DNA of 21,218 nucleotides, taken from Azolla caroliniana (taxonomy: Eukaryota > Plantae > Polypodiophyta). A program made the translations under genes and the position numbers. Positions 1 through 21,218 of this stretch are shown piece by piece (positions within the stretch are counted from its first letter, which is position 1; each line of letters begins with the position of its first letter). Below the pieces are notes generated by a model. That model made no database searches and was not told the DNA's origin. It was given only the letters and a program-made list of their open reading frames with translations. The stretch is from NCBI GenBank assembly GCA_043228905.1, contig JBHGNT010000539.1, forward strand, positions 1 through 21,218. Direction: 5' to 3'.

Positions 1-79
1 AAGAGCTCTAGGCGTCGCCGCCTCCCGCCTACTCCAACAGTGCGATCTTCGCCCTCGTGCTTGTATTCGTCGCTTCTAA
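1..79 (+). CDS. Partial 3' end of the storage protein gene (copy cut by window start)
   Basis: Identical to 1641-1719; encodes ...RALGVAASRLLQQCDLRPRACIRRF with TAA at 77-79. Confidence 0.9.
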   Translation, partial: RALGVAASRLLQQCDLRPRACIRRF

Positions 80-178
80 ATAGTACATAAACCTTGTTCA
101 AATTATTCTCGTGGTCTCTCTCTAATTTCTCGTAAGTGTTTACGAACAAGTGCGTCTCCCCAATCGCGCATTACACCC

Positions 179-240
179 ACACGAACGTAAACACGAGCAC
201 CAACGTCCCTCCAACACGAACGTAAACACGAGCACCAACG
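179..240 (+). repeat. Perfect 27-bp direct repeat x2 (acacgaacgtaaacacgagcaccaacg), present in every spacer
   Basis: Copies at 179-205 and 214-240, separated by 8 bp (tccctcca). Confidence 0.95.
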
Positions 241-587
241 CATAGAATTTGCCTATAGGGACCGCAAACCACCCAAACGGAAAAGAAAACATCAAAGCAG
301 GACACCCATACCGCACACGCCACGGCAACGGCTAAGGCTAAGGTCAACTTGTACACGCGGCGAATGTGAACTTGCTTCCACACTTGCCCGATAGGACACT
401 CCTAGTGTGGTAGTCCGGTTAGCTTTCCTTGTCGTCGTCGTTACCAACCCCTCGTCCGTCCGAACGAGCGAGTACGGACACCGGTCTATCTACGTTCATC
501 GATGTAGCACACTCGGGAGCCACCACTCGTCCCGCAGTAGCCTCCGCGTGCTTAGTGTCTCGGCACTAGCGCGTTCTAGTTTAATGT

Positions 588-595
588 GCACGTGC
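588..595. promoter_or_regulatory. G-box (GCACGTGC) about 360 bp upstream of the ATG; repeated in each unit
   Basis: CACGTG at 589-594. Further ACGT cores lie at 752-756 (ACGTG) and 811-816 (ACACGT). G-box/ABRE-like sites act with RY elements in seed storage protein promoters. Function here is inferred. Confidence 0.45.
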
Positions 596-839
596 CCGCA
601 CACCCCTACGCGCACGCGCGAGTGCGCACATTTACCTATGTATGTATAAATGTTATGTTGCTCGACAAGCTCTCGCGCGAGGAGGAGGAGTACCCGCTAC
701 AGGTTGCGCCCAGATTGTCTGGTGACAATACGACACCTAGGACTAGCCTAGACGTGTGGGAGGGTGGACTAGTTGGTATGGGTCTTGGGCAAGAGTTGTA
801 CGCAGGACACACACGTTATGGTAATGGGAGTGGTGAGTG

Positions 840-869
840 ACATGCATGTGCTCTGATTGCATGGCCATG
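840..869. promoter_or_regulatory. RY/Sph elements (B3-domain ABI3/FUS3/LEC2 binding sites); repeated in each unit
   Basis: CATGCATG at 841-848 lies within the palindrome ACATGCATGT (840-849). A second element, TGCATGGC at 858-865, has the reverse complement GCCATGCA (legumin-box core). Both sit directly upstream of the TATA box. Confidence 0.8.
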
Positions 870-871
870 TG

Positions 872-882
872 TATATATTAAA
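872..882 (+). promoter_or_regulatory. TATA box; repeated in each unit
   Basis: TATATATTAAA begins 77 bp upstream of the ATG at 949, implying a TSS near 900-905 and a short 5' UTR. The ATG context gcaATGGC fits the plant consensus. Confidence 0.8.
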
Positions 883-948
883 GGTGGAGGGAGCAATGTC
901 AATACAATCCATTAGGAGACAAGCACCGGGATCATAAGGACAATCGCA

Positions 949-1719
949 ATGGCAAAGCTTACTTCCGTATTCCTCATGGCCGTGATCATGCTCGCCGCGT
1001 GTACCGCGGCCAATGCTAGGTCTGTAGGGCGGGACCGTGAAGAGGAGCGACGCGATCGACGTCGTGAGGGAGACATTGACGAGGAGAGGCGCGATCGACG
1101 CCGAGAGGGGGAGTGCGAGCGACGTCGTGAGGGGTTCCTTGAGGAGGGGCGCCGCTACAGAGACAACAAGAGAGACTCCGAAGAGGAAAGGGAACGTCGT
1201 AGCCGTGGTCGCGATGAGCCACGTGACGAGGAACTGAGGCGAGAGTGCGGTGATTTCATCGACAAGCAGATCCGAGAGCTACAAGAGCGCTCCGAAAGAG
1301 AGGAAGGTGAACAAGGACGTCGCTCCCCATGGATCGAAAACACTCGATACTCAAGACCCTCGGAACGGTGCTGCAGGAACGTCGAACGAATCCCCGCCGA
1401 AGATCGATGCGATCGCCTACGTGATGCCTTGTATGCTGACGAGGAGGAACGACGCAATGATGAAGGCCGACGCCATGGCCAACAATCAAGGGAACACCGT
1501 AGCTGGGAGGAAGAGGACGAGGAGCGCGAGAGAGATAGCAGCCGTGAGCGACGAGAGGGTGACGAACGCCGCCACCGCATGTCTCGACGACAAGAGGACG
1601 AACGTCAACAACGTCGCCAATTCAAGGCCGATGACGAGGAAAGAGCTCTAGGCGTCGCCGCCTCCCGCCTACTCCAACAGTGCGATCTTCGCCCTCGTGC
1701 TTGTATTCGTCGCTTCTAA
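949..1719 (+). CDS. Arg/Glu-rich 2S albumin / alpha-globulin-like seed storage protein precursor (prolamin superfamily), copy 1
   Basis: 256-aa intronless ORF with signal peptide MAKLTSVFLMAVIMLAACTAANA. Cys occur at 56, 100, 141-142, 154, 245 and 252. Motifs CGDFIDKQI, PSERCC-X9-DRC and AASRLLQQCDLRPRAC resemble the conserved 2S albumin regions. RY/TATA promoter upstream. Confidence 0.85.
   Translation: MAKLTSVFLMAVIMLAACTAANARSVGRDREEERRDRRREGDIDEERRDRRREGECERRREGFLEEGRRYRDNKRDSEEERERRSRGRDEPRDEELRRECGDFIDKQIRELQERSEREEGEQGRRSPWIENTRYSRPSERCCRNVERIPAEDRCDRLRDALYADEEERRNDEGRRHGQQSREHRSWEEEDEERERDSSRERREGDERRHRMSRRQEDERQQRRQFKADDEERALGVAASRLLQQCDLRPRACIRRF
1042..1134 (+). repeat. Intragenic 39-bp (13-aa) imperfect tandem duplication EERRDRRREG plus a partial third copy
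   Basis: gaggagcgacgcgatcgacgtcgtgaggga at 1042; gaggagaggcgcgatcgacgccgagagggg at 1081; gagcgacgtcgtgagggg at 1117. Confidence 0.85.
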
Positions 1720-2588
1720 ATAGTACATAAACCTTGTTCAAATTATTCTCGTGGTCTCTCTCTAATTTCTCGTAAGTGTTTACGAACAAGTGCGTCTCCC
1801 CAATCGCGCATTACACCCACACGAACGTAAACACGAGCACCAACGTCCCTCCAACACGAACGTAAACACGAGCACCAACGCATAGAATTTGCCTATAGGG
1901 ACCGCAAACCACCCAAACGGAAAAGAAAACATCAAAGCAGGACACCCATACCGCACACGCCACGGCAACGGCTAAGGCTAAGGTCAACTTGTACACGCGG
2001 CGAATGTGAACTTGCTTCCACACTTGCCCGATAGGACACTCCTAGTGTGGTAGTCCGGTTAGCTTTCCTTGTCGTCGTCGTTACCAACCCCTCGTCCGTC
2101 CGAACGAGCGAGTACGGACACCGGTCTATCTACGTTCATCGATGTAGCACACTCGGGAGCCACCACTCGTCCCGCAGTAGCCTCCGCGTGCTTAGTGTCT
2201 CGGCACTAGCGCGTTCTAGTTTAATGTGCACGTGCCCGCACACCCCTACGCGCACGCGCGAGTGCGCACATTTACCTATGTATGTATAAATGTTATGTTG
2301 CTCGACAAGCTCTCGCGCGAGGAGGAGGAGTACCCGCTACAGGTTGCGCCCAGATTGTCTGGTGACAATACGACACCTAGGACTAGCCTAGACGTGTGGG
2401 AGGGTGGACTAGTTGGTATGGGTCTTGGGCAAGAGTTGTACGCAGGACACACACGTTATGGTAATGGGAGTGGTGAGTGACATGCATGTGCTCTGATTGC
2501 ATGGCCATGTGTATATATTAAAGGTGGAGGGAGCAATGTCAATACAATCCATTAGGAGACAAGCACCGGGATCATAAGGACAATCGCA

Positions 2589-3331
2589 ATGGCAAAGCTT
2601 ACTTCCGTATTCCTCATGGCCGTGATCATGCTCGCCGCGTGTACCGCGGCCAATGCTAGGTCTGTAGGGCGGGACCGTGAAGAGGAGCGACGCGATCGAC
2701 GTCGTGAGGGAGACATTGACGAGGAGAGGCGCGATCGACGCCGAGAGGGGGAGTGCGAGCGACGTCGTGAGGGGTTCCTTGAGGAGGGGCGCCGCTACAG
2801 AGACAACAAGAGAGACTCCGAAGAGGAAAGGGAACGTCGTAGCCGTGGTCGCGATGAGCCACGTGACGAGGAACTGAGGCGAGAGTGCGGTGATTTCATC
2901 GACAAGCAGATCCGAGAGCTACAAGAGCGCTCCGAAAGAGAGGAAGGTGAACAAGGACGTCGCTCCCCATGGATCGAAAACACTCGATACTCAAGACCCT
3001 CGGAACGGTGCTGCAGGAACGTCGAACGAATCCCCGCCGAAGATCGATGGACGAGGAGGAACGACGCAATGATGAAGGCCGACGCCATGGCCAACAATCA
3101 AGGGAACACCGTAGCTGGGAGGAAGAGGACGAGGAGCGCGAGAGAGATAGCAGCCGTGAGCGACGAGAGGGTGACGAACGCCGCCACCGCATGTCTCGAC
3201 GACAAGAGGACGAACGTCAACAACGTCGCCAATTCAAGGCCGATGACGAGGAAAGAGCTCTAGGCGTCGCCGCCTCCCGCCTACTCCAACAGTGCGATCT
3301 TCGCCCTCGTGCTTGTATTCGTCGCTTCTAA
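2589..3331 (+). pseudogene. Frameshifted copy 2 of the storage protein gene (28-bp deletion)
   Basis: Reads gatcgatg|gacgagg at 3049/3050 and lacks cgatcgcctacgtgatgccttgtatgct (1410-1437 in copy 1). The ORF shifts frame after ...PAEDR and stops at 3263 (224 aa). The original-frame stop is at 3331. Confidence 0.9.
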
Positions 3332-4200
3332 ATAGTACATAAACCTTGTTCAAATTATTCTCGTGGTCTCTCTCTAATTTCTCGTAAGTGTTTACGAACA
3401 AGTGCGTCTCCCCAATCGCGCATTACACCCACACGAACGTAAACACGAGCACCAACGTCCCTCCAACACGAACGTAAACACGAGCACCAACGCATAGAAT
3501 TTGCCTATAGGGACCGCAAACCACCCAAACGGAAAAGAAAACATCAAAGCAGGACACCCATACCGCACACGCCACGGCAACGGCTAAGGCTAAGGTCAAC
3601 TTGTACACGCGGCGAATGTGAACTTGCTTCCACACTTGCCCGATAGGACACTCCTAGTGTGGTAGTCCGGTTAGCTTTCCTTGTCGTCGTCGTTACCAAC
3701 CCCTCGTCCGTCCGAACGAGCGAGTACGGACACCGGTCTATCTACGTTCATCGATGTAGCACACTCGGGAGCCACCACTCGTCCCGCAGTAGCCTCCGCG
3801 TGCTTAGTGTCTCGGCACTAGCGCGTTCTAGTTTAATGTGCACGTGCCCGCACACCCCTACGCGCACGCGCGAGTGCGCACATTTACCTATGTATGTATA
3901 AATGTTATGTTGCTCGACAAGCTCTCGCGCGAGGAGGAGGAGTACCCGCTACAGGTTGCGCCCAGATTGTCTGGTGACAATACGACACCTAGGACTAGCC
4001 TAGACGTGTGGGAGGGTGGACTAGTTGGTATGGGTCTTGGGCAAGAGTTGTACGCAGGACACACACGTTATGGTAATGGGAGTGGTGAGTGACATGCATG
4101 TGCTCTGATTGCATGGCCATGTGTATATATTAAAGGTGGAGGGAGCAATGTCAATACAATCCATTAGGAGACAAGCACCGGGATCATAAGGACAATCGCA

Positions 4201-4971
4201 ATGGCAAAGCTTACTTCCGTATTCCTCATGGCCGTGATCATGCTCGCCGCGTGTACCGCGGCCAATGCTAGGTCTGTAGGGCGGGACCGTGAAGAGGAGC
4301 GACGCGATCGACGTCGTGAGGGAGACATTGACGAGGAGAGGCGCGATCGACGCCGAGAGGGGGAGTGCGAGCGACGTCGTGAGGGGTTCCTTGAGGAGGG
4401 GCGCCGCTACAGAGACAACAAGAGAGACTCCGAAGAGGAAAGGGAACGTCGTAGCCGTGGTCGCGATGAGCCACGTGACGAGGAACTGAGGCGAGAGTGC
4501 GGTGATTTCATCGACAAGCAGATCCGAGAGCTACAAGAGCGCTCCGAAAGAGAGGAAGGTGAACAAGGACGTCGCTCCCCATGGATCGAAAACACTCGAT
4601 ACTCAAGACCCTCGGAACGGTGCTGCAGGAACGTCGAACGAATCCCCGCCGAAGATCGATGCGATCGCCTACGTGATGCCTTGTATGCTGACGAGGAGGA
4701 ACGACGCAATGATGAAGGCCGACGCCATGGCCAACAATCAAGGGAACACCGTAGCTGGGAGGAAGAGGACGAGGAGCGCGAGAGAGATAGCAGCCGTGAG
4801 CGACGAGAGGGTGACGAACGCCGCCACCGCATGTCTCGACGACAAGAGGACGAACGTCAACAACGTCGCCAATTCAAGGCCGATGACGAGGAAAGAGCTC
4901 TAGGCGTCGCCGCCTCCCGCCTACTCCAACAGTGCGATCTTCGCCCTCGTGCTTGTATTCGTCGCTTCTAA
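4201..4971 (+). CDS. 2S albumin-like storage protein precursor, copy 3
   Basis: Translation identical to copy 1. Confidence 0.85.
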   Translation: MAKLTSVFLMAVIMLAACTAANARSVGRDREEERRDRRREGDIDEERRDRRREGECERRREGFLEEGRRYRDNKRDSEEERERRSRGRDEPRDEELRRECGDFIDKQIRELQERSEREEGEQGRRSPWIENTRYSRPSERCCRNVERIPAEDRCDRLRDALYADEEERRNDEGRRHGQQSREHRSWEEEDEERERDSSRERREGDERRHRMSRRQEDERQQRRQFKADDEERALGVAASRLLQQCDLRPRACIRRF

Positions 4972-5840
4972 ATAGTACATAAACCTTGTTCAAATTATTC
5001 TCGTGGTCTCTCTCTAATTTCTCGTAAGTGTTTACGAACAAGTGCGTCTCCCCAATCGCGCATTACACCCACACGAACGTAAACACGAGCACCAACGTCC
5101 CTCCAACACGAACGTAAACACGAGCACCAACGCATAGAATTTGCCTATAGGGACCGCAAACCACCCAAACGGAAAAGAAAACATCAAAGCAGGACACCCA
5201 TACCGCACACGCCACGGCAACGGCTAAGGCTAAGGTCAACTTGTACACGCGGCGAATGTGAACTTGCTTCCACACTTGCCCGATAGGACACTCCTAGTGT
5301 GGTAGTCCGGTTAGCTTTCCTTGTCGTCGTCGTTACCAACCCCTCGTCCGTCCGAACGAGCGAGTACGGACACCGGTCTATCTACGTTCATCGATGTAGC
5401 ACACTCGGGAGCCACCACTCGTCCCGCAGTAGCCTCCGCGTGCTTAGTGTCTCGGCACTAGCGCGTTCTAGTTTAATGTGCACGTGCCCGCACACCCCTA
5501 CGCGCACGCGCGAGTGCGCACATTTACCTATGTATGTATAAATGTTATGTTGCTCGACAAGCTCTCGCGCGAGGAGGAGGAGTACCCGCTACAGGTTGCG
5601 CCCAGATTGTCTGGTGACAATACGACACCTAGGACTAGCCTAGACGTGTGGGAGGGTGGACTAGTTGGTATGGGTCTTGGGCAAGAGTTGTACGCAGGAC
5701 ACACACGTTATGGTAATGGGAGTGGTGAGTGACATGCATGTGCTCTGATTGCATGGCCATGTGTATATATTAAAGGTGGAGGGAGCAATGTCAATACAAT
5801 CCATTAGGAGACAAGCACCGGGATCATAAGGACAATCGCA

Positions 5841-6611
5841 ATGGCAAAGCTTACTTCCGTATTCCTCATGGCCGTGATCATGCTCGCCGCGTGTACCGCG
5901 GCCAATGCTAGGTCTGTAGGGCGGGACCGTGAAGAGGAGCGACGCGATCGACGTCGTGAGGGAGACATTGACGAGGAGAGGCGCGATCGACGCCGAGAGG
6001 GGGAGTGCGAGCGACGTCGTGAGGGGTTCCTTGAGGAGGGGCGCCGCTACAGAGACAACAAGAGAGACTCCGAAGAGGAAAGGGAACGTCGTAGCCGTGG
6101 TCGCGATGAGCCACGTGACGAGGAACTGAGGCGAGAGTGCGGTGATTTCATCGACAAGCAGATCCGAGAGCTACAAGAGCGCTCCGAAAGAGAGGAAGGT
6201 GAACAAGGACGTCGCTCCCCATGGATCGAAAACACTCGATACTCAAGACCCTCGGAACGGTGCTGCAGGAACGTCGAACGAATCCCCGCCGAAGATCGAT
6301 GCGATCGCCTACGTGATGCCTTGTATGCTGACGAGGAGGAACGACGCAATGATGAAGGCCGACGCCATGGCCAACAATCAAGGGAACACCGTAGCTGGGA
6401 GGAAGAGGACGAGGAGCGCGAGAGAGATAGCAGCCGTGAGCGACGAGAGGGTGACGAACGCCGCCACCGCATGTCTCGACGACAAGAGGACGAACGTCAA
6501 CAACGTCGCCAATTCAAGGCCGATGACGAGGAAAGAGCTCTAGGCGTCGCCGCCTCCCGCCTACTCCAACAGTGCGATCTTCGCCCTCGTGCTTGTATTC
6601 GTCGCTTCTAA
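5841..6611 (+). CDS. 2S albumin-like storage protein precursor, copy 4
   Basis: Translation identical to copy 1. Confidence 0.85.
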   Translation: MAKLTSVFLMAVIMLAACTAANARSVGRDREEERRDRRREGDIDEERRDRRREGECERRREGFLEEGRRYRDNKRDSEEERERRSRGRDEPRDEELRRECGDFIDKQIRELQERSEREEGEQGRRSPWIENTRYSRPSERCCRNVERIPAEDRCDRLRDALYADEEERRNDEGRRHGQQSREHRSWEEEDEERERDSSRERREGDERRHRMSRRQEDERQQRRQFKADDEERALGVAASRLLQQCDLRPRACIRRF

Positions 6612-7480
6612 ATAGTACATAAACCTTGTTCAAATTATTCTCGTGGTCTCTCTCTAATTTCTCGTAAGTGTTTACGAACAAGTGCGTCTCCCCAATCGCG
6701 CATTACACCCACACGAACGTAAACACGAGCACCAACGTCCCTCCAACACGAACGTAAACACGAGCACCAACGCATAGAATTTGCCTATAGGGACCGCAAA
6801 CCACCCAAACGGAAAAGAAAACATCAAAGCAGGACACCCATACCGCACACGCCACGGCAACGGCTAAGGCTAAGGTCAACTTGTACACGCGGCGAATGTG
6901 AACTTGCTTCCACACTTGCCCGATAGGACACTCCTAGTGTGGTAGTCCGGTTAGCTTTCCTTGTCGTCGTCGTTACCAACCCCTCGTCCGTCCGAACGAG
7001 CGAGTACGGACACCGGTCTATCTACGTTCATCGATGTAGCACACTCGGGAGCCACCACTCGTCCCGCAGTAGCCTCCGCGTGCTTAGTGTCTCGGCACTA
7101 GCGCGTTCTAGTTTAATGTGCACGTGCCCGCACACCCCTACGCGCACGCGCGAGTGCGCACATTTACCTATGTATGTATAAATGTTATGTTGCTCGACAA
7201 GCTCTCGCGCGAGGAGGAGGAGTACCCGCTACAGGTTGCGCCCAGATTGTCTGGTGACAATACGACACCTAGGACTAGCCTAGACGTGTGGGAGGGTGGA
7301 CTAGTTGGTATGGGTCTTGGGCAAGAGTTGTACGCAGGACACACACGTTATGGTAATGGGAGTGGTGAGTGACATGCATGTGCTCTGATTGCATGGCCAT
7401 GTGTATATATTAAAGGTGGAGGGAGCAATGTCAATACAATCCATTAGGAGACAAGCACCGGGATCATAAGGACAATCGCA

Positions 7481-8251
7481 ATGGCAAAGCTTACTTCCGT
7501 ATTCCTCATGGCCGTGATCATGCTCGCCGCGTGTACCGCGGCCAATGCTAGGTCTGTAGGGCGGGACCGTGAAGAGGAGCGACGCGATCGACGTCGTGAG
7601 GGAGACATTGACGAGGAGAGGCGCGATCGACGCCGAGAGGGGGAGTGCGAGCGACGTCGTGAGGGGTTCCTTGAGGAGGGGCGCCGCTACAGAGACAACA
7701 AGAGAGACTCCGAAGAGGAAAGGGAACGTCGTAGCCGTGGTCGCGATGAGCCACGTGACGAGGAACTGAGGCGAGAGTGCGGTGATTTCATCGACAAGCA
7801 GATCCGAGAGCTACAAGAGCGCTCCGAAAGAGAGGAAGGTGAACAAGGACGTCGCTCCCCATGGATCGAAAACACTCGATACTCAAGACCCTCGGAACGG
7901 TGCTGCAGGAACGTCGAACGAATCCCCGCCGAAGATCGATGCGATCGCCTACGTGATGCCTTGTATGCTGACGAGGAGGAACGACGCAATGATGAAGGCC
8001 GACGCCATGGCCAACAATCAAGGGAACACCGTAGCTGGGAGGAAGAGGACGAGGAGCGCGAGAGAGATAGCAGCCGTGAGCGACGAGAGGGTGACGAACG
8101 CCGCCACCGCATGTCTCGACGACAAGAGGACGAACGTCAACAACGTCGCCAATTCAAGGCCGATGACGAGGAAAGAGCTCTAGGCGTCGCCGCCTCCCGC
8201 CTACTCCAACAGTGCGATCTTCGCCCTCGTGCTTGTATTCGTCGCTTCTAA
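7481..8251 (+). CDS. 2S albumin-like storage protein precursor, copy 5
   Basis: Translation identical to copy 1. Confidence 0.85.
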   Translation: MAKLTSVFLMAVIMLAACTAANARSVGRDREEERRDRRREGDIDEERRDRRREGECERRREGFLEEGRRYRDNKRDSEEERERRSRGRDEPRDEELRRECGDFIDKQIRELQERSEREEGEQGRRSPWIENTRYSRPSERCCRNVERIPAEDRCDRLRDALYADEEERRNDEGRRHGQQSREHRSWEEEDEERERDSSRERREGDERRHRMSRRQEDERQQRRQFKADDEERALGVAASRLLQQCDLRPRACIRRF

Positions 8252-9120
8252 ATAGTACATAAACCTTGTTCAAATTATTCTCGTGGTCTCTCTCTAATTT
8301 CTCGTAAGTGTTTACGAACAAGTGCGTCTCCCCAATCGCGCATTACACCCACACGAACGTAAACACGAGCACCAACGTCCCTCCAACACGAACGTAAACA
8401 CGAGCACCAACGCATAGAATTTGCCTATAGGGACCGCAAACCACCCAAACGGAAAAGAAAACATCAAAGCAGGACACCCATACCGCACACGCCACGGCAA
8501 CGGCTAAGGCTAAGGTCAACTTGTACACGCGGCGAATGTGAACTTGCTTCCACACTTGCCCGATAGGACACTCCTAGTGTGGTAGTCCGGTTAGCTTTCC
8601 TTGTCGTCGTCGTTACCAACCCCTCGTCCGTCCGAACGAGCGAGTACGGACACCGGTCTATCTACGTTCATCGATGTAGCACACTCGGGAGCCACCACTC
8701 GTCCCGCAGTAGCCTCCGCGTGCTTAGTGTCTCGGCACTAGCGCGTTCTAGTTTAATGTGCACGTGCCCGCACACCCCTACGCGCACGCGCGAGTGCGCA
8801 CATTTACCTATGTATGTATAAATGTTATGTTGCTCGACAAGCTCTCGCGCGAGGAGGAGGAGTACCCGCTACAGGTTGCGCCCAGATTGTCTGGTGACAA
8901 TACGACACCTAGGACTAGCCTAGACGTGTGGGAGGGTGGACTAGTTGGTATGGGTCTTGGGCAAGAGTTGTACGCAGGACACACACGTTATGGTAATGGG
9001 AGTGGTGAGTGACATGCATGTGCTCTGATTGCATGGCCATGTGTATATATTAAAGGTGGAGGGAGCAATGTCAATACAATCCATTAGGAGACAAGCACCG
9101 GGATCATAAGGACAATCGCA

Positions 9121-9891
9121 ATGGCAAAGCTTACTTCCGTATTCCTCATGGCCGTGATCATGCTCGCCGCGTGTACCGCGGCCAATGCTAGGTCTGTAGG
9201 GCGGGACCGTGAAGAGGAGCGACGCGATCGACGTCGTGAGGGAGACATTGACGAGGAGAGGCGCGATCGACGCCGAGAGGGGGAGTGCGAGCGACGTCGT
9301 GAGGGGTTCCTTGAGGAGGGGCGCCGCTACAGAGACAACAAGAGAGACTCCGAAGAGGAAAGGGAACGTCGTAGCCGTGGTCGCGATGAGCCACGTGACG
9401 AGGAACTGAGGCGAGAGTGCGGTGATTTCATCGACAAGCAGATCCGAGAGCTACAAGAGCGCTCCGAAAGAGAGGAAGGTGAACAAGGACGTCGCTCCCC
9501 ATGGATCGAAAACACTCGATACTCAAGACCCTCGGAACGGTGCTGCAGGAACGTCGAACGAATCCCCGCCGAAGATCGATGCGATCGCCTACGTGATGCC
9601 TTGTATGCTGACGAGGAGGAACGACGCAATGATGAAGGCCGACGCCATGGCCAACAATCAAGGGAACACCGTAGCTGGGAGGAAGAGGACGAGGAGCGCG
9701 AGAGAGATAGCAGCCGTGAGCGACGAGAGGGTGACGAACGCCGCCACCGCATGTCTCGACGACAAGAGGACGAACGTCAACAACGTCGCCAATTCAAGGC
9801 CGATGACGAGGAAAGAGCTCTAGGCGTCGCCGCCTCCCGCCTACTCCAACAGTGCGATCTTCGCCCTCGTGCTTGTATTCGTCGCTTCTAA
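9121..9891 (+). CDS. 2S albumin-like storage protein precursor, copy 6
   Basis: Translation identical to copy 1. Confidence 0.85.
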   Translation: MAKLTSVFLMAVIMLAACTAANARSVGRDREEERRDRRREGDIDEERRDRRREGECERRREGFLEEGRRYRDNKRDSEEERERRSRGRDEPRDEELRRECGDFIDKQIRELQERSEREEGEQGRRSPWIENTRYSRPSERCCRNVERIPAEDRCDRLRDALYADEEERRNDEGRRHGQQSREHRSWEEEDEERERDSSRERREGDERRHRMSRRQEDERQQRRQFKADDEERALGVAASRLLQQCDLRPRACIRRF

Positions 9892-10760: not shown

Positions 10761-11531
10761 ATGGCAAAGCTTACTTCCGTATTCCTCATGGCCGTGATCA
10801 TGCTCGCCGCGTGTACCGCGGCCAATGCTAGGTCTGTAGGGCGGGACCGTGAAGAGGAGCGACGCGATCGACGTCGTGAGGGAGACATTGACGAGGAGAG
10901 GCGCGATCGACGCCGAGAGGGGGAGTGCGAGCGACGTCGTGAGGGGTTCCTTGAGGAGGGGCGCCGCTACAGAGACAACAAGAGAGACTCCGAAGAGGAA
11001 AGGGAACGTCGTAGCCGTGGTCGCGATGAGCCACGTGACGAGGAACTGAGGCGAGAGTGCGGTGATTTCATCGACAAGCAGATCCGAGAGCTACAAGAGC
11101 GCTCCGAAAGAGAGGAAGGTGAACAAGGACGTCGCTCCCCATGGATCGAAAACACTCGATACTCAAGACCCTCGGAACGGTGCTGCAGGAACGTCGAACG
11201 AATCCCCGCCGAAGATCGATGCGATCGCCTACGTGATGCCTTGTATGCTGACGAGGAGGAACGACGCAATGATGAAGGCCGACGCCATGGCCAACAATCA
11301 AGGGAACACCGTAGCTGGGAGGAAGAGGACGAGGAGCGCGAGAGAGATAGCAGCCGTGAGCGACGAGAGGGTGACGAACGCCGCCACCGCATGTCTCGAC
11401 GACAAGAGGACGAACGTCAACAACGTCGCCAATTCAAGGCCGATGACGAGGAAAGAGCTCTAGGCGTCGCCGCCTCCCGCCTACTCCAACAGTGCGATCT
11501 TCGCCCTCGTGCTTGTATTCGTCGCTTCTAA
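10761..11531 (+). CDS. 2S albumin-like storage protein precursor, copy 7
   Basis: Translation identical to copy 1. Confidence 0.85.
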   Translation: MAKLTSVFLMAVIMLAACTAANARSVGRDREEERRDRRREGDIDEERRDRRREGECERRREGFLEEGRRYRDNKRDSEEERERRSRGRDEPRDEELRRECGDFIDKQIRELQERSEREEGEQGRRSPWIENTRYSRPSERCCRNVERIPAEDRCDRLRDALYADEEERRNDEGRRHGQQSREHRSWEEEDEERERDSSRERREGDERRHRMSRRQEDERQQRRQFKADDEERALGVAASRLLQQCDLRPRACIRRF

Positions 11532-12400
11532 ATAGTACATAAACCTTGTTCAAATTATTCTCGTGGTCTCTCTCTAATTTCTCGTAAGTGTTTACGAACA
11601 AGTGCGTCTCCCCAATCGCGCATTACACCCACACGAACGTAAACACGAGCACCAACGTCCCTCCAACACGAACGTAAACACGAGCACCAACGCATAGAAT
11701 TTGCCTATAGGGACCGCAAACCACCCAAACGGAAAAGAAAACATCAAAGCAGGACACCCATACCGCACACGCCACGGCAACGGCTAAGGCTAAGGTCAAC
11801 TTGTACACGCGGCGAATGTGAACTTGCTTCCACACTTGCCCGATAGGACACTCCTAGTGTGGTAGTCCGGTTAGCTTTCCTTGTCGTCGTCGTTACCAAC
11901 CCCTCGTCCGTCCGAACGAGCGAGTACGGACACCGGTCTATCTACGTTCATCGATGTAGCACACTCGGGAGCCACCACTCGTCCCGCAGTAGCCTCCGCG
12001 TGCTTAGTGTCTCGGCACTAGCGCGTTCTAGTTTAATGTGCACGTGCCCGCACACCCCTACGCGCACGCGCGAGTGCGCACATTTACCTATGTATGTATA
12101 AATGTTATGTTGCTCGACAAGCTCTCGCGCGAGGAGGAGGAGTACCCGCTACAGGTTGCGCCCAGATTGTCTGGTGACAATACGACACCTAGGACTAGCC
12201 TAGACGTGTGGGAGGGTGGACTAGTTGGTATGGGTCTTGGGCAAGAGTTGTACGCAGGACACACACGTTATGGTAATGGGAGTGGTGAGTGACATGCATG
12301 TGCTCTGATTGCATGGCCATGTGTATATATTAAAGGTGGAGGGAGCAATGTCAATACAATCCATTAGGAGACAAGCACCGGGATCATAAGGACAATCGCA

Positions 12401-13171
12401 ATGGCAAAGCTTACTTCCGTATTCCTCATGGCCGTGATCATGCTCGCCGCGTGTACCGCGGCCAATGCTAGGTCTGTAGGGCGGGACCGTGAAGAGGAGC
12501 GACGCGATCGACGTCGTGAGGGAGACATTGACGAGGAGAGGCGCGATCGACGCCGAGATGGGGAGTGCGAGCGACGTCGTGAGGGGTTCCTTGAGGAGGG
12601 GCGCCGCTACAGAGACAACAAGAGAGACTCCGAAGAGGAAAGGGAACGTCGTAGCCGTGGTCGCGATGAGCCACGTGACGAGGAACTGAGGCGAGAGTGC
12701 GGTGATTTCATCGACAAGCAGATCCGAGAGCTACAAGAGCGCTCCGAAAGAGAGGAAGGTGAACAAGGACGTCGCTCCCCATGGATCGAAAACACTCGAT
12801 ACTCAAGACCCTCGGAACGGTGCTGCAGGAACGTCGAACGAATCCCCGCCGAAGATCGATGCGATCGCCTACGTGATGCCTTGTATGCTGACGAGGAGGA
12901 ACGACGCAATGATGAAGGCCGACGCCATGGCCAACAATCAAGGGAACACCGTAGCTGGGAGGAAGAGGACGAGGAGCGCGAGAGAGATAGCAGCCGTGAG
13001 CGACGAGAGGGTGACGAACGCCGCCACCGCATGTCTCGACGACAAGAGGACGAACGTCAACAACGTCGCCAATTCAAGGCCGATGACGAGGAAAGAGCTC
13101 TAGGCGTCGCCGCCTCCCGCCTACTCCAACAGTGCGATCTTCGCCCTCGTGCTTGTATTCGTCGCTTCTAA
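12401..13171 (+). CDS. 2S albumin-like storage protein precursor, copy 8 (E53D variant)
   Basis: Same as copy 1 except G>T at 12559 (GAG>GAT). Confidence 0.85.
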   Translation: MAKLTSVFLMAVIMLAACTAANARSVGRDREEERRDRRREGDIDEERRDRRRDGECERRREGFLEEGRRYRDNKRDSEEERERRSRGRDEPRDEELRRECGDFIDKQIRELQERSEREEGEQGRRSPWIENTRYSRPSERCCRNVERIPAEDRCDRLRDALYADEEERRNDEGRRHGQQSREHRSWEEEDEERERDSSRERREGDERRHRMSRRQEDERQQRRQFKADDEERALGVAASRLLQQCDLRPRACIRRF

Positions 13172-14040
13172 ATAGTACATAAACCTTGTTCAAATTATTC
13201 TCGTGGTCTCTCTCTAATTTCTCGTAAGTGTTTACGAACAAGTGCGTCTCCCCAATCGCGCATTACACCCACACGAACGTAAACACGAGCACCAACGTCC
13301 CTCCAACACGAACGTAAACACGAGCACCAACGCATAGAATTTGCCTATAGGGACCGCAAACCACCCAAACGGAAAAGAAAACATCAAAGCAGGACACCCA
13401 TACCGCACACGCCACGGCAACGGCTAAGGCTAAGGTCAACTTGTACACGCGGCGAATGTGAACTTGCTTCCACACTTGCCCGATAGGACACTCCTAGTGT
13501 GGTAGTCCGGTTAGCTTTCCTTGTCGTCGTCGTTACCAACCCCTCGTCCGTCCGAACGAGCGAGTACGGACACCGGTCTATCTACGTTCATCGATGTAGC
13601 ACACTCGGGAGCCACCACTCGTCCCGCAGTAGCCTCCGCGTGCTTAGTGTCTCGGCACTAGCGCGTTCTAGTTTAATGTGCACGTGCCCGCACACCCCTA
13701 CGCGCACGCGCGAGTGCGCACATTTACCTATGTATGTATAAATGTTATGTTGCTCGACAAGCTCTCGCGCGAGGAGGAGGAGTACCCGCTACAGGTTGCG
13801 CCCAGATTGTCTGGTGACAATACGACACCTAGGACTAGCCTAGACGTGTGGGAGGGTGGACTAGTTGGTATGGGTCTTGGGCAAGAGTTGTACGCAGGAC
13901 ACACACGTTATGGTAATGGGAGTGGTGAGTGACATGCATGTGCTCTGATTGCATGGCCATGTGTATATATTAAAGGTGGAGGGAGCAATGTCAATACAAT
14001 CCATTAGGAGACAAGCACCGGGATCATAAGGACAATCGCA

Positions 14041-14811
14041 ATGGCAAAGCTTACTTCCGTATTCCTCATGGCCGTGATCATGCTCGCCGCGTGTACCGCG
14101 GCCAATGCTAGGTCTGTAGGGCGGGACCGTGAAGAGGAGCGACGCGATCGACGTCGTGAGGGAGACATTGACGAGGAGAGGCGCGATCGACGCCGAGAGG
14201 GGGAGTGCGAGCGACGTCGTGAGGGGTTCCTTGAGGAGGGGCGCCGCTACAGAGACAACAAGAGAGACTCCGAAGAGGAAAGGGAACGTCGTAGCCGTGG
14301 TCGCGATGAGCCACGTGACGAGGAACTGAGGCGAGAGTGCGGTGATTTCATCGACAAGCAGATCCGAGAGCTACAAGAGCGCTCCGAAAGAGAGGAAGGT
14401 GAACAAGGACGTCGCTCCCCATGGATCGAAAACACTCGATACTCAAGACCCTCGGAACGGTGCTGCAGGAACGTCGAACGAATCCCCGCCGAAGATCGAT
14501 GCGATCGCCTACGTGATGCCTTGTATGCTGACGAGGAGGAACGACGCAATGATGAAGGCCGACGCCATGGCCAACAATCAAGGGAACACCGTAGCTGGGA
14601 GGAAGAGGACGAGGAGCGCGAGAGAGATAGCAGCCGTGAGCGACGAGAGGGTGACGAACGCCGCCACCGCATGTCTCGACGACAAGAGGACGAACGTCAA
14701 CAACGTCGCCAATTCAAGGCCGATGACGAGGAAAGAGCTCTAGGCGTCGCCGCCTCCCGCCTACTCCAACAGTGCGATCTTCGCCCTCGTGCTTGTATTC
14801 GTCGCTTCTAA
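14041..14811 (+). CDS. 2S albumin-like storage protein precursor, copy 9
   Basis: Translation identical to copy 1. Confidence 0.85.
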   Translation: MAKLTSVFLMAVIMLAACTAANARSVGRDREEERRDRRREGDIDEERRDRRREGECERRREGFLEEGRRYRDNKRDSEEERERRSRGRDEPRDEELRRECGDFIDKQIRELQERSEREEGEQGRRSPWIENTRYSRPSERCCRNVERIPAEDRCDRLRDALYADEEERRNDEGRRHGQQSREHRSWEEEDEERERDSSRERREGDERRHRMSRRQEDERQQRRQFKADDEERALGVAASRLLQQCDLRPRACIRRF

Positions 14812-15680
14812 ATAGTACATAAACCTTGTTCAAATTATTCTCGTGGTCTCTCTCTAATTTCTCGTAAGTGTTTACGAACAAGTGCGTCTCCCCAATCGCG
14901 CATTACACCCACACGAACGTAAACACGAGCACCAACGTCCCTCCAACACGAACGTAAACACGAGCACCAACGCATAGAATTTGCCTATAGGGACCGCAAA
15001 CCACCCAAACGGAAAAGAAAACATCAAAGCAGGACACCCATACCGCACACGCCACGGCAACGGCTAAGGCTAAGGTCAACTTGTACACGCGGCGAATGTG
15101 AACTTGCTTCCACACTTGCCCGATAGGACACTCCTAGTGTGGTAGTCCGGTTAGCTTTCCTTGTCGTCGTCGTTACCAACCCCTCGTCCGTCCGAACGAG
15201 CGAGTACGGACACCGGTCTATCTACGTTCATCGATGTAGCACACTCGGGAGCCACCACTCGTCCCGCAGTAGCCTCCGCGTGCTTAGTGTCTCGGCACTA
15301 GCGCGTTCTAGTTTAATGTGCACGTGCCCGCACACCCCTACGCGCACGCGCGAGTGCGCACATTTACCTATGTATGTATAAATGTTATGTTGCTCGACAA
15401 GCTCTCGCGCGAGGAGGAGGAGTACCCGCTACAGGTTGCGCCCAGATTGTCTGGTGACAATACGACACCTAGGACTAGCCTAGACGTGTGGGAGGGTGGA
15501 CTAGTTGGTATGGGTCTTGGGCAAGAGTTGTACGCAGGACACACACGTTATGGTAATGGGAGTGGTGAGTGACATGCATGTGCTCTGATTGCATGGCCAT
15601 GTGTATATATTAAAGGTGGAGGGAGCAATGTCAATACAATCCATTAGGAGACAAGCACCGGGATCATAAGGACAATCGCA

Positions 15681-16451
15681 ATGGCAAAGCTTACTTCCGT
15701 ATTCCTCATGGCCGTGATCATGCTCGCCGCGTGTACCGCGGCCAATGCTAGGTCTGTAGGGCGGGACCGTGAAGAGGAGCGACGCGATCGACGTCGTGAG
15801 GGAGACATTGACGAGGAGAGGCGCGATCGACGCCGAGAGGGGGAGTGCGAGCGACGTCGTGAGGGGTTCCTTGAGGAGGGGCGCCGCTACAGAGACAACA
15901 AGAGAGACTCCGAAGAGGAAAGGGAACGTCGTAGCCGTGGTCGCGATGAGCCACGTGACGAGGAACTGAGGCGAGAGTGCGGTGATTTCATCGACAAGCA
16001 GATCCGAGAGCTACAAGAGCGCTCCGAAAGAGAGGAAGGTGAACAAGGACGTCGCTCCCCATGGATCGAAAACACTCGATACTCAAGACCCTCGGAACGG
16101 TGCTGCAGGAACGTCGAACGAATCCCCGCCGAAGATCGATGCGATCGCCTACGTGATGCCTTGTATGCTGACGAGGAGGAACGACGCAATGATGAAGGCC
16201 GACGCCATGGCCAACAATCAAGGGAACACCGTAGCTGGGAGGAAGAGGACGAGGAGCGCGAGAGAGATAGCAGCCGTGAGCGACGAGAGGGTGACGAACG
16301 CCGCCACCGCATGTCTCGACGACAAGAGGACGAACGTCAACAACGTCGCCAATTCAAGGCCGATGACGAGGAAAGAGCTCTAGGCGTCGCCGCCTCCCGC
16401 CTACTCCAACAGTGCGATCTTCGCCCTCGTGCTTGTATTCGTCGCTTCTAA
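15681..16451 (+). CDS. 2S albumin-like storage protein precursor, copy 10
   Basis: Translation identical to copy 1. Confidence 0.85.
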   Translation: MAKLTSVFLMAVIMLAACTAANARSVGRDREEERRDRRREGDIDEERRDRRREGECERRREGFLEEGRRYRDNKRDSEEERERRSRGRDEPRDEELRRECGDFIDKQIRELQERSEREEGEQGRRSPWIENTRYSRPSERCCRNVERIPAEDRCDRLRDALYADEEERRNDEGRRHGQQSREHRSWEEEDEERERDSSRERREGDERRHRMSRRQEDERQQRRQFKADDEERALGVAASRLLQQCDLRPRACIRRF

Positions 16452-17320
16452 ATAGTACATAAACCTTGTTCAAATTATTCTCGTGGTCTCTCTCTAATTT
16501 CTCGTAAGTGTTTACGAACAAGTGCGTCTCCCCAATCGCGCATTACACCCACACGAACGTAAACACGAGCACCAACGTCCCTCCAACACGAACGTAAACA
16601 CGAGCACCAACGCATAGAATTTGCCTATAGGGACCGCAAACCACCCAAACGGAAAAGAAAACATCAAAGCAGGACACCCATACCGCACACGCCACGGCAA
16701 CGGCTAAGGCTAAGGTCAACTTGTACACGCGGCGAATGTGAACTTGCTTCCACACTTGCCCGATAGGACACTCCTAGTGTGGTAGTCCGGTTAGCTTTCC
16801 TTGTCGTCGTCGTTACCAACCCCTCGTCCGTCCGAACGAGCGAGTACGGACACCGGTCTATCTACGTTCATCGATGTAGCACACTCGGGAGCCACCACTC
16901 GTCCCGCAGTAGCCTCCGCGTGCTTAGTGTCTCGGCACTAGCGCGTTCTAGTTTAATGTGCACGTGCCCGCACACCCCTACGCGCACGCGCGAGTGCGCA
17001 CATTTACCTATGTATGTATAAATGTTATGTTGCTCGACAAGCTCTCGCGCGAGGAGGAGGAGTACCCGCTACAGGTTGCGCCCAGATTGTCTGGTGACAA
17101 TACGACACCTAGGACTAGCCTAGACGTGTGGGAGGGTGGACTAGTTGGTATGGGTCTTGGGCAAGAGTTGTACGCAGGACACACACGTTATGGTAATGGG
17201 AGTGGTGAGTGACATGCATGTGCTCTGATTGCATGGCCATGTGTATATATTAAAGGTGGAGGGAGCAATGTCAATACAATCCATTAGGAGACAAGCACCG
17301 GGATCATAAGGACAATCGCA

Positions 17321-18091
17321 ATGGCAAAGCTTACTTCCGTATTCCTCATGGCCGTGATCATGCTCGCCGCGTGTACCGCGGCCAATGCTAGGTCTGTAGG
17401 GCGGGACCGTGAAGAGGAGCGACGCGATCGACGTCGTGAGGGAGACATTGACGAGGAGAGGCGCGATCGACGCCGAGAGGGGGAGTGCGAGCGACGTCGT
17501 GAGGGGTTCCTTGAGGAGGGGCGCCGCTACAGAGACAACAAGAGAGACTCCGAAGAGGAAAGGGAACGTCGTAGCCGTGGTCGCGATGAGCCACGTGACG
17601 AGGAACTGAGGCGAGAGTGCGGTGATTTCATCGACAAGCAGATCCGAGAGCTACAAGAGCGCTCCGAAAGAGAGGAAGGTGAACAAGGACGTCGCTCCCC
17701 ATGGATCGAAAACACTCGATACTCAAGACCCTCGGAACGGTGCTGCAGGAACGTCGAACGAATCCCCGCCGAAGATCGATGCGATCGCCTACGTGATGCC
17801 TTGTATGCTGACGAGGAGGAACGACGCAATGATGAAGGCCGACGCCATGGCCAACAATCAAGGGAACACCGTAGCTGGGAGGAAGAGGACGAGGAGCGCG
17901 AGAGAGATAGCAGCCGTGAGCGACGAGAGGGTGACGAACGCCGCCACCGCATGTCTCGACGACAAGAGGACGAACGTCAACAACGTCGCCAATTCAAGGC
18001 CGATGACGAGGAAAGAGCTCTAGGCGTCGCCGCCTCCCGCCTACTCCAACAGTGCGATCTTCGCCCTCGTGCTTGTATTCGTCGCTTCTAA
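17321..18091 (+). CDS. 2S albumin-like storage protein precursor, copy 11
   Basis: Translation identical to copy 1. Confidence 0.85.
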   Translation: MAKLTSVFLMAVIMLAACTAANARSVGRDREEERRDRRREGDIDEERRDRRREGECERRREGFLEEGRRYRDNKRDSEEERERRSRGRDEPRDEELRRECGDFIDKQIRELQERSEREEGEQGRRSPWIENTRYSRPSERCCRNVERIPAEDRCDRLRDALYADEEERRNDEGRRHGQQSREHRSWEEEDEERERDSSRERREGDERRHRMSRRQEDERQQRRQFKADDEERALGVAASRLLQQCDLRPRACIRRF

Positions 18092-18960
18092 ATAGTACAT
18101 AAACCTTGTTCAAATTATTCTCGTGGTCTCTCTCTAATTTCTCGTAAGTGTTTACGAACAAGTGCGTCTCCCCAATCGCGCATTACACCCACACGAACGT
18201 AAACACGAGCACCAACGTCCCTCCAACACGAACGTAAACACGAGCACCAACGCATAGAATTTGCCTATAGGGACCGCAAACCACCCAAACGGAAAAGAAA
18301 ACATCAAAGCAGGACACCCATACCGCACACGCCACGGCAACGGCTAAGGCTAAGGTCAACTTGTACACGCGGCGAATGTGAACTTGCTTCCACACTTGCC
18401 CGATAGGACACTCCTAGTGTGGTAGTCCGGTTAGCTTTCCTTGTCGTCGTCGTTACCAACCCCTCGTCCGTCCGAACGAGCGAGTACGGACACCGGTCTA
18501 TCTACGTTCATCGATGTAGCACACTCGGGAGCCACCACTCGTCCCGCAGTAGCCTCCGCGTGCTTAGTGTCTCGGCACTAGCGCGTTCTAGTTTAATGTG
18601 CACGTGCCCGCACACCCCTACGCGCACGCGCGAGTGCGCACATTTACCTATGTATGTATAAATGTTATGTTGCTCGACAAGCTCTCGCGCGAGGAGGAGG
18701 AGTACCCGCTACAGGTTGCGCCCAGATTGTCTGGTGACAATACGACACCTAGGACTAGCCTAGACGTGTGGGAGGGTGGACTAGTTGGTATGGGTCTTGG
18801 GCAAGAGTTGTACGCAGGACACACACGTTATGGTAATGGGAGTGGTGAGTGACATGCATGTGCTCTGATTGCATGGCCATGTGTATATATTAAAGGTGGA
18901 GGGAGCAATGTCAATACAATCCATTAGGAGACAAGCACCGGGATCATAAGGACAATCGCA

Positions 18961-19731
18961 ATGGCAAAGCTTACTTCCGTATTCCTCATGGCCGTGATCA
19001 TGCTCGCCGCGTGTACCGCGGCCAATGCTAGGTCTGTAGGGCGGGACCGTGAAGAGGAGCGACGCGATCGACGTCGTGAGGGAGACATTGACGAGGAGAG
19101 GCGCGATCGACGCCGAGAGGGGGAGTGCGAGCGACGTCGTGAGGGGTTCCTTGAGGAGGGGCGCCGCTACAGAGACAACAAGAGAGACTCCGAAGAGGAA
19201 AGGGAACGTCGTAGCCGTGGTCGCGATGAGCCACGTGACGAGGAACTGAGGCGAGAGTGCGGTGATTTCATCGACAAGCAGATCCGAGAGCTACAAGAGC
19301 GCTCCGAAAGAGAGGAAGGTGAACAAGGACGTCGCTCCCCATGGATCGAAAACACTCGATACTCAAGACCCTCGGAACGGTGCTGCAGGAACGTCGAACG
19401 AATCCCCGCCGAAGATCGATGCGATCGCCTACGTGATGCCTTGTATGCTGACGAGGAGGAACGACGCAATGATGAAGGCCGACGCCATGGCCAACAATCA
19501 AGGGAACACCGTAGCTGGGAGGAAGAGGACGAGGAGCGCGAGAGAGATAGCAGCCGTGAGCGACGAGAGGGTGACGAACGCCGCCACCGCATGTCTCGAC
19601 GACAAGAGGACGAACGTCAACAACGTCGCCAATTCAAGGCCGATGACGAGGAAAGAGCTCTAGGCGTCGCCGCCTCCCGCCTACTCCAACAGTGCGATCT
19701 TCGCCCTCGTGCTTGTATTCGTCGCTTCTAA
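18961..19731 (+). CDS. 2S albumin-like storage protein precursor, copy 12
   Basis: Translation identical to copy 1. Confidence 0.85.
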   Translation: MAKLTSVFLMAVIMLAACTAANARSVGRDREEERRDRRREGDIDEERRDRRREGECERRREGFLEEGRRYRDNKRDSEEERERRSRGRDEPRDEELRRECGDFIDKQIRELQERSEREEGEQGRRSPWIENTRYSRPSERCCRNVERIPAEDRCDRLRDALYADEEERRNDEGRRHGQQSREHRSWEEEDEERERDSSRERREGDERRHRMSRRQEDERQQRRQFKADDEERALGVAASRLLQQCDLRPRACIRRF

Positions 19732-20600
19732 ATAGTACATAAACCTTGTTCAAATTATTCTCGTGGTCTCTCTCTAATTTCTCGTAAGTGTTTACGAACA
19801 AGTGCGTCTCCCCAATCGCGCATTACACCCACACGAACGTAAACACGAGCACCAACGTCCCTCCAACACGAACGTAAACACGAGCACCAACGCATAGAAT
19901 TTGCCTATAGGGACCGCAAACCACCCAAACGGAAAAGAAAACATCAAAGCAGGACACCCATACCGCACACGCCACGGCAACGGCTAAGGCTAAGGTCAAC
20001 TTGTACACGCGGCGAATGTGAACTTGCTTCCACACTTGCCCGATAGGACACTCCTAGTGTGGTAGTCCGGTTAGCTTTCCTTGTCGTCGTCGTTACCAAC
20101 CCCTCGTCCGTCCGAACGAGCGAGTACGGACACCGGTCTATCTACGTTCATCGATGTAGCACACTCGGGAGCCACCACTCGTCCCGCAGTAGCCTCCGCG
20201 TGCTTAGTGTCTCGGCACTAGCGCGTTCTAGTTTAATGTGCACGTGCCCGCACACCCCTACGCGCACGCGCGAGTGCGCACATTTACCTATGTATGTATA
20301 AATGTTATGTTGCTCGACAAGCTCTCGCGCGAGGAGGAGGAGTACCCGCTACAGGTTGCGCCCAGATTGTCTGGTGACAATACGACACCTAGGACTAGCC
20401 TAGACGTGTGGGAGGGTGGACTAGTTGGTATGGGTCTTGGGCAAGAGTTGTACGCAGGACACACACGTTATGGTAATGGGAGTGGTGAGTGACATGCATG
20501 TGCTCTGATTGCATGGCCATGTGTATATATTAAAGGTGGAGGGAGCAATGTCAATACAATCCATTAGGAGACAAGCACCGGGATCATAAGGACAATCGCA

Positions 20601-21218
20601 ATGGCAAAGCTTACTTCCGTATTCCTCATGGCCGTGATCATGCTCGCCGCGTGTACCGCGGCCAATGCTAGGTCTGTAGGGCGGGACCGTGAAGAGGAGC
20701 GACGCGATCGACGTCGTGAGGGAGACATTGACGAGGAGAGGCGCGATCGACGCCGAGAGGGGGAGTGCGAGCGACGTCGTGAGGGGTTCCTTGAGGAGGG
20801 GCGCCGCTACAGAGACAACAAGAGAGACTCCGAAGAGGAAAGGGAACGTCGTAGCCGTGGTCGCGATGAGCCACGTGACGAGGAACTGAGGCGAGAGTGC
20901 GGTGATTTCATCGACAAGCAGATCCGAGAGCTACAAGAGCGCTCCGAAAGAGAGGAAGGTGAACAAGGACGTCGCTCCCCATGGATCGAAAACACTCGAT
21001 ACTCAAGACCCTCGGAACGGTGCTGCAGGAACGTCGAACGAATCCCCGCCGAAGATCGATGCGATCGCCTACGTGATGCCTTGTATGCTGACGAGGAGGA
21101 ACGACGCAATGATGAAGGCCGACGCCATGGCCAACAATCAAGGGAACACCGTAGCTGGGAGGAAGAGGACGAGGAGCGCGAGAGAGATAGCAGCCGTGAG
21201 CGACGAGAGGGTGACGAA
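20601..21218 (+). CDS. Partial (5' part) storage protein gene, copy 13, cut by window end
   Basis: ATGGCAAAG at 20601; matches copy 1 through ...RERREGDE (206 codons). Missing from the ORF track only because no stop lies within the window. Confidence 0.85.
   Translation, partial: MAKLTSVFLMAVIMLAACTAANARSVGRDREEERRDRRREGDIDEERRDRRREGECERRREGFLEEGRRYRDNKRDSEEERERRSRGRDEPRDEELRRECGDFIDKQIRELQERSEREEGEQGRRSPWIENTRYSRPSERCCRNVERIPAEDRCDRLRDALYADEEERRNDEGRRHGQQSREHRSWEEEDEERERDSSRERREGDE

Follow-up and report, generated by a model that had tools for sequence, protein, structure and literature searches.

In ribosomal DNA (rDNA) arrays hundreds of uniform units combine a conserved gene with a faster-evolving spacer, and diverged stray copies lie elsewhere. 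Among protein-coding genes, homogeneous tandem arrays are formed by the Drosophila histone locus (a unit of ~5 kb repeated 100-110 times) and by Stellate (1-198 copies) (PMC12400953). In plants, the maize alpha-zeins comprise 41-48 genes at several loci, in regions of 80-500 kb, that are diverged, in many cases damaged, and have retroelements between them (PMC3121756), and Marchantia ORF162 is present in a few hundred copies that are co-amplified with repeats (bioRxiv 10.1101/2021.02.08.430207). As to storage proteins, 2S albumins carry eight cysteines with a CC and a CXC motif, bonded 1-5, 2-3, 4-7 and 6-8 (PMC2570561), and they are also contained in fern spores (PMC4973428). Here we describe a 21,218-nucleotide stretch of DNA (contig JBHGNT010000539.1, positions 1 to 21,218; hereafter the window) in which an intronless gene for a 2S-albumin-like protein rich in Arg and Glu is repeated head-to-tail with its promoter and spacer, and which we read as part of an array of likely several hundred copies.

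This locus resembles the Drosophila arrays in that protein-coding genes stand in homogeneous tandem arrays with concerted evolution, but differs from those animal histone or drive genes by a plant secreted-type protein, a 1.64-kb unit and an estimated copy number that is several-fold higher. With the alpha-zeins it would share the tandem amplification of prolamin-superfamily storage genes; however, the units seen here are near-identical, spacers included, and no insertions separate them within the window. Like ORF162 it would be a plant protein-coding gene at hundreds of copies, whereas ORF162 is described as sex-chromosome-limited and male-specific, in mixed repeat arrangements and not in a uniform single-unit array. 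The likeness to rDNA extends to the estimated hundreds of uniform units, the conserved gene, the faster spacer and the diverged stray copies; unlike rDNA, the unit is protein-coding, has a TATA/RY promoter and gives no match in Rfam (window positions 1-3300 scanned). Uniform arrays of protein genes and diverged clusters of storage genes are known already; new is their combination, as far as our literature search reached, which found no report of such a uniform storage-gene array, with most subscription journals and the supplements of genome papers outside its range. The main text of a fern genome paper (PMC6786969) contains no mention of 'storage', 'albumin' or 'satellite'.

Within the window, five anchors each recur 13 times at a period of 1640 bp, with one interval of 1612 bp, and the window length corresponds to 12.95 units. 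When the 13 segments were compared, 10 were identical, one carried a 28-bp deletion, one a single-nucleotide polymorphism (SNP), and the last one ends at 1566 bp without mismatch. Fourteen gene copies are touched, namely a 79-bp 3' tail, 12 whole genes and one gene cut by the window end; the frame is intact in 11 of the 12 whole genes (10 identical, one with the change E53D), and one is frameshifted (224 residues). An earlier interpretation made from the letters of the window (the sequence-only reading) had proposed that a whole cassette is repeated head-to-tail every 1640 bp, with two differences in ~21 kb and identical non-coding spacers. The anchors and the segment comparison bear this out: the differences are exactly one SNP (12559) and one 28-bp deletion, both of which may be consensus errors, and the spacers are identical across all units of the window. 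Its count of at least 14 copies is right if the two partial genes are included, but as a total it would be a large underestimate of the likely number. The features of the array, which derive from the open reading frame (ORF) list and the comparisons named, are:

1..21218, forward strand: head-to-tail array of 1640-bp units, 12.95 units, open at both window ends (period and segment comparison)
949..2588, forward strand: one unit, counted between successive start codons and made up of a 771-bp intronless gene and an 869-bp spacer (ORF list, alignment)
949..1719, forward strand: ORF of 256 amino acids, repeated at 4201, 5841, 7481, 9121, 10761, 12401, 14041, 15681, 17321 and 18961
2589..3263, forward strand: copy 2, frameshifted by the 28-bp deletion after 3049; 224 amino acids, with C154, C245 and C252 lost (ORF list, segment comparison)
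12559, forward strand: single G>T change, E53D, in one copy only (segment comparison)
from 20601, forward strand: ORF copy cut by the window end (ORF list)

The other ORFs of the unit (50-141 amino acids) were set aside as off-frame or antisense by-products. PstI, SpeI and AgeI each have a single site in the unit, whereas BamHI and BglII have none.

The same arrangement is found in other samples. Among 24 public runs listed, 18 (from 14 studies) contained at least half of the unit's words, and the runs with such words were labelled organism A, organism B or leaf metagenome. The contigs of four runs from four studies (X8, X9, X13 and X17) were aligned to exactly one unit (window positions 4600-6239), and the joint from its last to its first base was present in all four at depths of 616, 580, 7245 and 25000, which match those of the main contigs. 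In run X1, which may be the window's own source, a single contig of 1685 letters with a depth of 910 closes the whole unit (aligned to window positions 4000-5639); including X1, the joint was found in five of five DNA-type studies. A metagenome scan yielded four loci from 146 candidates (L001-L004). L001 is 100% identical to the window over 2057 bp, which is more than one unit, with a coverage of 657 in the contig name; it is a separate short-read assembly that may be of the same genotype as the window. One contig of L002 reads from the gene 3' end through the spacer into the gene 5' end (unit ~1730 bp, coverage 596), and the two ends of the L003 contig overlap by 67 bp, which closes the unit (~1857 bp, coverage 440). 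As the joint stands at main-contig depth in other runs and L001 matches exactly, the array is real and not an artefact. The unit joints, the depth and L001 also support the view of the sequence-only reading that a whole expression cassette forms an rDNA-like array of high copy number. A second, diverged family stands at about one third of the main depth in X13 (~2400-2600) and X8 (~250-290); since the units of this family, at high depth, are themselves joined head-to-tail (6238 to 4600), more than one array is likely present.

To put a figure on the copy number, the depth of the main contigs was divided by that of diverged low-depth paralogue contigs, which were assumed to be roughly single copy. 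The median ratios were 199 (X8), 174 (X9), 685 (X13), 641 (X17) and 182 (X1), and among the contigs listed the values spanned 119 to 1073; the two deepest runs, each with at least eight low-depth values, gave ratios of 640-690. From these ratios we roughly estimate that several hundred copies are likely present, and 640-690 units would make ~1.1 Mb.

The three unit types (window, L002 and L003) differ from each other by 0.15-0.19 synonymous substitutions per site (dS). The ratio of replacement to synonymous changes (dN/dS) was 0.13, 0.10 and 0.11 for the three pairs in the non-repetitive cores (Fisher p < 3e-7), a pattern that indicates purifying selection on the protein. Over aligned columns, identity was 0.77-0.83 for the spacer vs 0.91-0.95 for the gene; a spacer that diverges faster than the gene is a trait of rDNA- and histone-type arrays. 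Two further traits of concertedly evolving tandem arrays are the head-to-tail units of gene and spacer, and a greater likeness of units within a genome (2 differences in 21 kb) than between lineages (the dS given above), where the uniformity within L002 and L003 rests on the assembly of each as a single contig. Because the tandem, high-coverage design is common to lineages that are far more diverged than the copies inside one array, we are most likely looking at an old array kept uniform by concerted evolution rather than at a one-off recent amplification; a separate recent amplification in each lineage would be less economical. Thus, of the two origins offered before, very recent amplification or strong concerted evolution, the second is favoured, and the first fits poorly with L002 and L003, which are head-to-tail and of high coverage at this divergence. 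Closely related samples also differ: a 15-bp in-frame insertion occurs at full depth in X1, X8 and X13 and in none of the window copies or L001, and at position 5177 there is an A in X8, X9, X13 and most of X17, and a G in the window, L001 and X1. As different versions of the unit each stand at full depth in different close samples, this points to unit variants that swept within or near one species, as seen in contigs of a kind that loses rare variants. In X9, the main contig equals the window over 4600-5886 bar one difference, and the 5' part of the gene (window 5860-6120) is found only as a variant with ~10 changes at a depth of 700-760; possibly this is a mosaic unit from conversion between families.

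The encoded protein shows two features:

949..1017, forward strand: hydrophobic N-terminus, putative signal peptide, residues 1-23, identical in the window, L002 and L003 (read from the sequence)
1246..1704, forward strand: cysteine skeleton C100, C141-C142, C154, C245 and C252; the Arg/Glu-rich insert that separates C154 from C245 varies in length (alignment)

After the N-terminal stretch, the protein consists of 28-31% Arg and 21-23% Glu, with ~2 N atoms per residue. It matches PF00234 with 21.7 bits over the whole protein and 23.2 bits over residues 90-256 (cut-off 21.7). Its length is 256 residues in the window and about 292 and 295 residues in the other unit types, outside the 18-21 kDa of canonical 2S precursors, and the canonical eight-cysteine skeleton is not found: CXC reads DRC, and Cys56 is absent from L002 and L003. 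The absent cysteines would be Cys1 and Cys5, i.e. one bonded pair, and the long insert would lie between Cys6 and Cys7, the known variable region of 2S albumins. Because these two defining features (cysteine skeleton and precursor size) fail, we file the protein, going by its sequence, as a 2S-albumin-like member of the prolamin superfamily and not as a canonical 2S albumin. With 2S albumins, including the fern matteuccin, it would share the N-terminal signal, the CC pair, the PF00234 match and the variable Cys6-Cys7 region; it differs by the lack of Cys1 and Cys5, by its 256-295 residues and by being very Arg-rich. A function like that of a 2S albumin seems likely. Single-sequence AlphaFold models consist of long helices with predicted template modelling scores of 0.27 and 0.40 and are uninformative as to the fold, and Foldseek with predicted models returned no matches. 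A sequence search of the PDB gave nothing under E 0.7 and a profile search no match. Homology searches gave one match among 4374 candidates and two in 1.84 billion representatives, all unnamed fragments, and searches with the cysteine region none among 45 and 280 candidates; being word-based and length-limited, these searches do not show an absence of fern relatives. A Conotoxin match in Pfam was rejected (E 0.09-0.2, far below cut-off, covering the signal peptide).

Upstream of each gene we find a conserved set of putative promoter elements:

586..594, forward strand: G-box-like CACGTG (589-594), the full hexamer in the window and L002, only ATGTGCAC common to all three unit types (alignment)
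841..848, forward strand: RY element CATGCATG; the 11-bp block around it shows no differences among the three unit types (alignment)
857..881, forward strand: second RY-like block running into the TATA box (872), conserved in all three unit types (alignment)
906..948, forward strand: putative 5' untranslated region, with a likely transcription start near 906 (from the 5' ends of RNA-type contigs of organism C vs L002)

RY elements are bound by B3 factors in storage-gene promoters, a relation that extends to ferns and mosses (PMC3458547). When the spacer was shuffled 20000 times, CATGCATG appeared within the last 200 bp in 0.3% of cases. The blocks conserved in all three spacers also include the stretch around 906. 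Two runs of organism C from one study, X19 and X20, which are guessed to be RNA, cover the gene. The 5' end of X19 matches the L002 leader and starts at the equivalent of 906, 34 bp past the TATA box; it carries two letters not in L002, which would be the remnant of a template-switch library. The upstream promoter is without cover in X19 and X20, although it is ~90% alike and hence alignable; missing cover in the remaining spacer and the 3' part carries no weight, given the divergence of the relative's spacer. The run search listed no RNA run with the unit's words, and X23, a run of organism A guessed to be RNA, gave no contigs on the unit, neither of which bears on expression. The summed depth, a poor measure of output, is thousands to >100000 in X20 and ~25 in X19, a hint at tissue-specific output. 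As a separate observation, CpG is not depleted in window positions 949-2588, L002 or L003 (observed/expected 1.22-1.24), despite the high copy number of the repeat.

Taken together, we give a probability of roughly 65% to the following explanation. The compact intronless gene, whose product is a prolamin-superfamily protein of secreted type that is rich in Arg and Glu, would sit in a likely chromosomal head-to-tail array, likely several hundred copies long, which evolves in concert. Unequal exchange, gene conversion, or excision and reinsertion of circles would homogenise the array; homogenisation is suggested because different unit variants stand at full depth in different samples. Each unit would be transcribed from its own RY/TATA promoter, and the product would be stored in vacuoles as a nitrogen reserve, likely of spores (or seeds). 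The uniform array would be kept for dosage, i.e. for the mass output of the reserve protein, a benefit that we infer. The term 'seed storage protein' of the sequence-only reading holds only in part: the protein is of the prolamin superfamily (PF00234), but the Cys1/Cys5 pair is missing, and if the host is a fern, as it may be, the tissue would be the spore. A bolder version, to which we give slightly less than an even chance, is a plant lineage, likely a fern, with a megabase-scale rDNA-like satellite of at least 500 working copies of its main reserve-protein gene and further paralogous arrays beside it, in which homogenisation is fast enough for new in-frame variants to sweep the array within a species, and with a design kept across species. 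If true, it would be a plant protein-coding counterpart of rDNA and a direct model for the concerted evolution of a selected protein.

Many identical gene copies are usually expected to attract repeat silencing, and plant storage genes are known as loose families whose diverged copies number in the tens. If related lineages keep a uniform array of likely hundreds, this would mean that a plant can attain extreme protein output via rDNA-style dosage and can hold hundreds of identical RNA polymerase II genes without repeat silencing. As the unit is protein-coding, synonymous and replacement changes could be traced while they sweep the array, which is impossible with rDNA. Most assemblies reduce arrays of this kind to a single gene, so that further examples may have gone unnoticed. 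Should the host be a fern, the array would also bear on the relation of spore reserves to seed reserves.

Several points weigh against this explanation. The match to PF00234 is only at or just above the cut-off, and L003 (19.3 bits) and the partial L002 (19.0) fall below it; two of the eight cysteines of the prolamin superfamily are missing and six conserved. Depth was calibrated on assumed and not on known single-copy genes, summed depth is no copy number, and the value of 25000 resembles a ceiling. Logan contigs lose rare variants and polishing may erase differences, so that the uniformity may be overstated. Neither array end nor flank is seen, as the window is open at both ends. The RNA evidence comes from one study of a relative, with runs of unspecified tissue that are only guessed to be RNA. 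Finally, dN/dS rises to 0.21, 0.13 and 0.29 once the repetitive parts are included, and the gene length of L002 is uncertain by multiples of its 30-bp repeat.

Among the alternatives, two survive best, both of them unlikely and to a similar degree. The first is a satellite in which a gene is included by chance, with repeat turnover driving the copy number, most copies silent and dosage unselected. Selection on the protein shows a working family and not a need for hundreds of copies; in addition, two of 26 copies of the maize 19-kDa zeins yield most of the mRNA (PMC3121756), and Stellate copy numbers vary 1-198 between strains (PMC12400953). However, coverage is high for every unit type seen, and the frame is kept in the 11 whole copies mentioned. 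Among the indels listed, those in the gene are multiples of three in five of five cases and those in the spacer in two of seven; the lack of CpG depletion is a weak argument against long-term silencing by methylation. The second accepts the array as described and takes the protein as a secreted member of the prolamin superfamily that serves in defence, the wall or the matrix and not as a food reserve. Inhibitors and lipid-transfer proteins also belong to PF00234, the ragi amylase/trypsin inhibitor is what the weak PDB matches (E 0.7-0.9) point to, and the homology searches gave no named homologue; against this, Arg and Glu make up half of the mature chain, its repeats vary freely in length (256-295 amino acids) and the RY/TATA layout of the promoter is that of storage genes.

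Less probable still is a high copy number that is mostly extrachromosomal, with circles of at least one unit replicating or accumulating and the window representing a concatemer or a short reintegrated array. Circular contigs fit a monomeric circle and a tandem array alike, the depth ratios vary ~fourfold between runs, and histone, rDNA and Stellate arrays are reported to give rise to circles (PMC12400953). Yet the unit encodes no replication protein and is without an Rfam match, no relative was found among viral or prokaryote contigs (none among 5 and 88 candidates), and 13 units follow one another without a break in the window; the runs with the lower ratios are shallow ones, in which a depth floor would inflate the denominator. 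An assembly or library artefact (collapsed or concatemeric reads), the case that the sequence-only reading had proposed to check, would fit the near-perfect identity and the fact that the deletion and SNP variants are unseen among the run contigs listed, but is hardly credible, as four further studies show the joint at depths of 580-25000 and L001 matches exactly.

Some minor observations concern other members of the family and the growth of the unit. In L004 (positions 1-1317, coverage 332) the gene 3' end and ~620 bp of spacer are followed by AT-rich unrelated DNA without notable ORF, which could mark the edge of an array, belong to a type of unit that is longer, or reflect a chimeric contig. 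X1 contains a more distant family, ~80-85% alike (contigs of 888 and 925 letters, depth 361-379). The sequence P0001, which shows 54% identity over the N-terminal third, lacks the cysteine domain in frame and had no usable match in an atlas search, may be a member of this more distant high-depth type. A short direct duplication lies at window positions 180-240, in the 3' part of the spacer (Tandem Repeats Finder period 18), and separate duplications occur at this place in L003. In the two relatives the Arg/Glu insert was lengthened by in-frame minisatellites that are not the same, with 30-bp units in L002 (1-175) and shorter ones in L003 (790-950).

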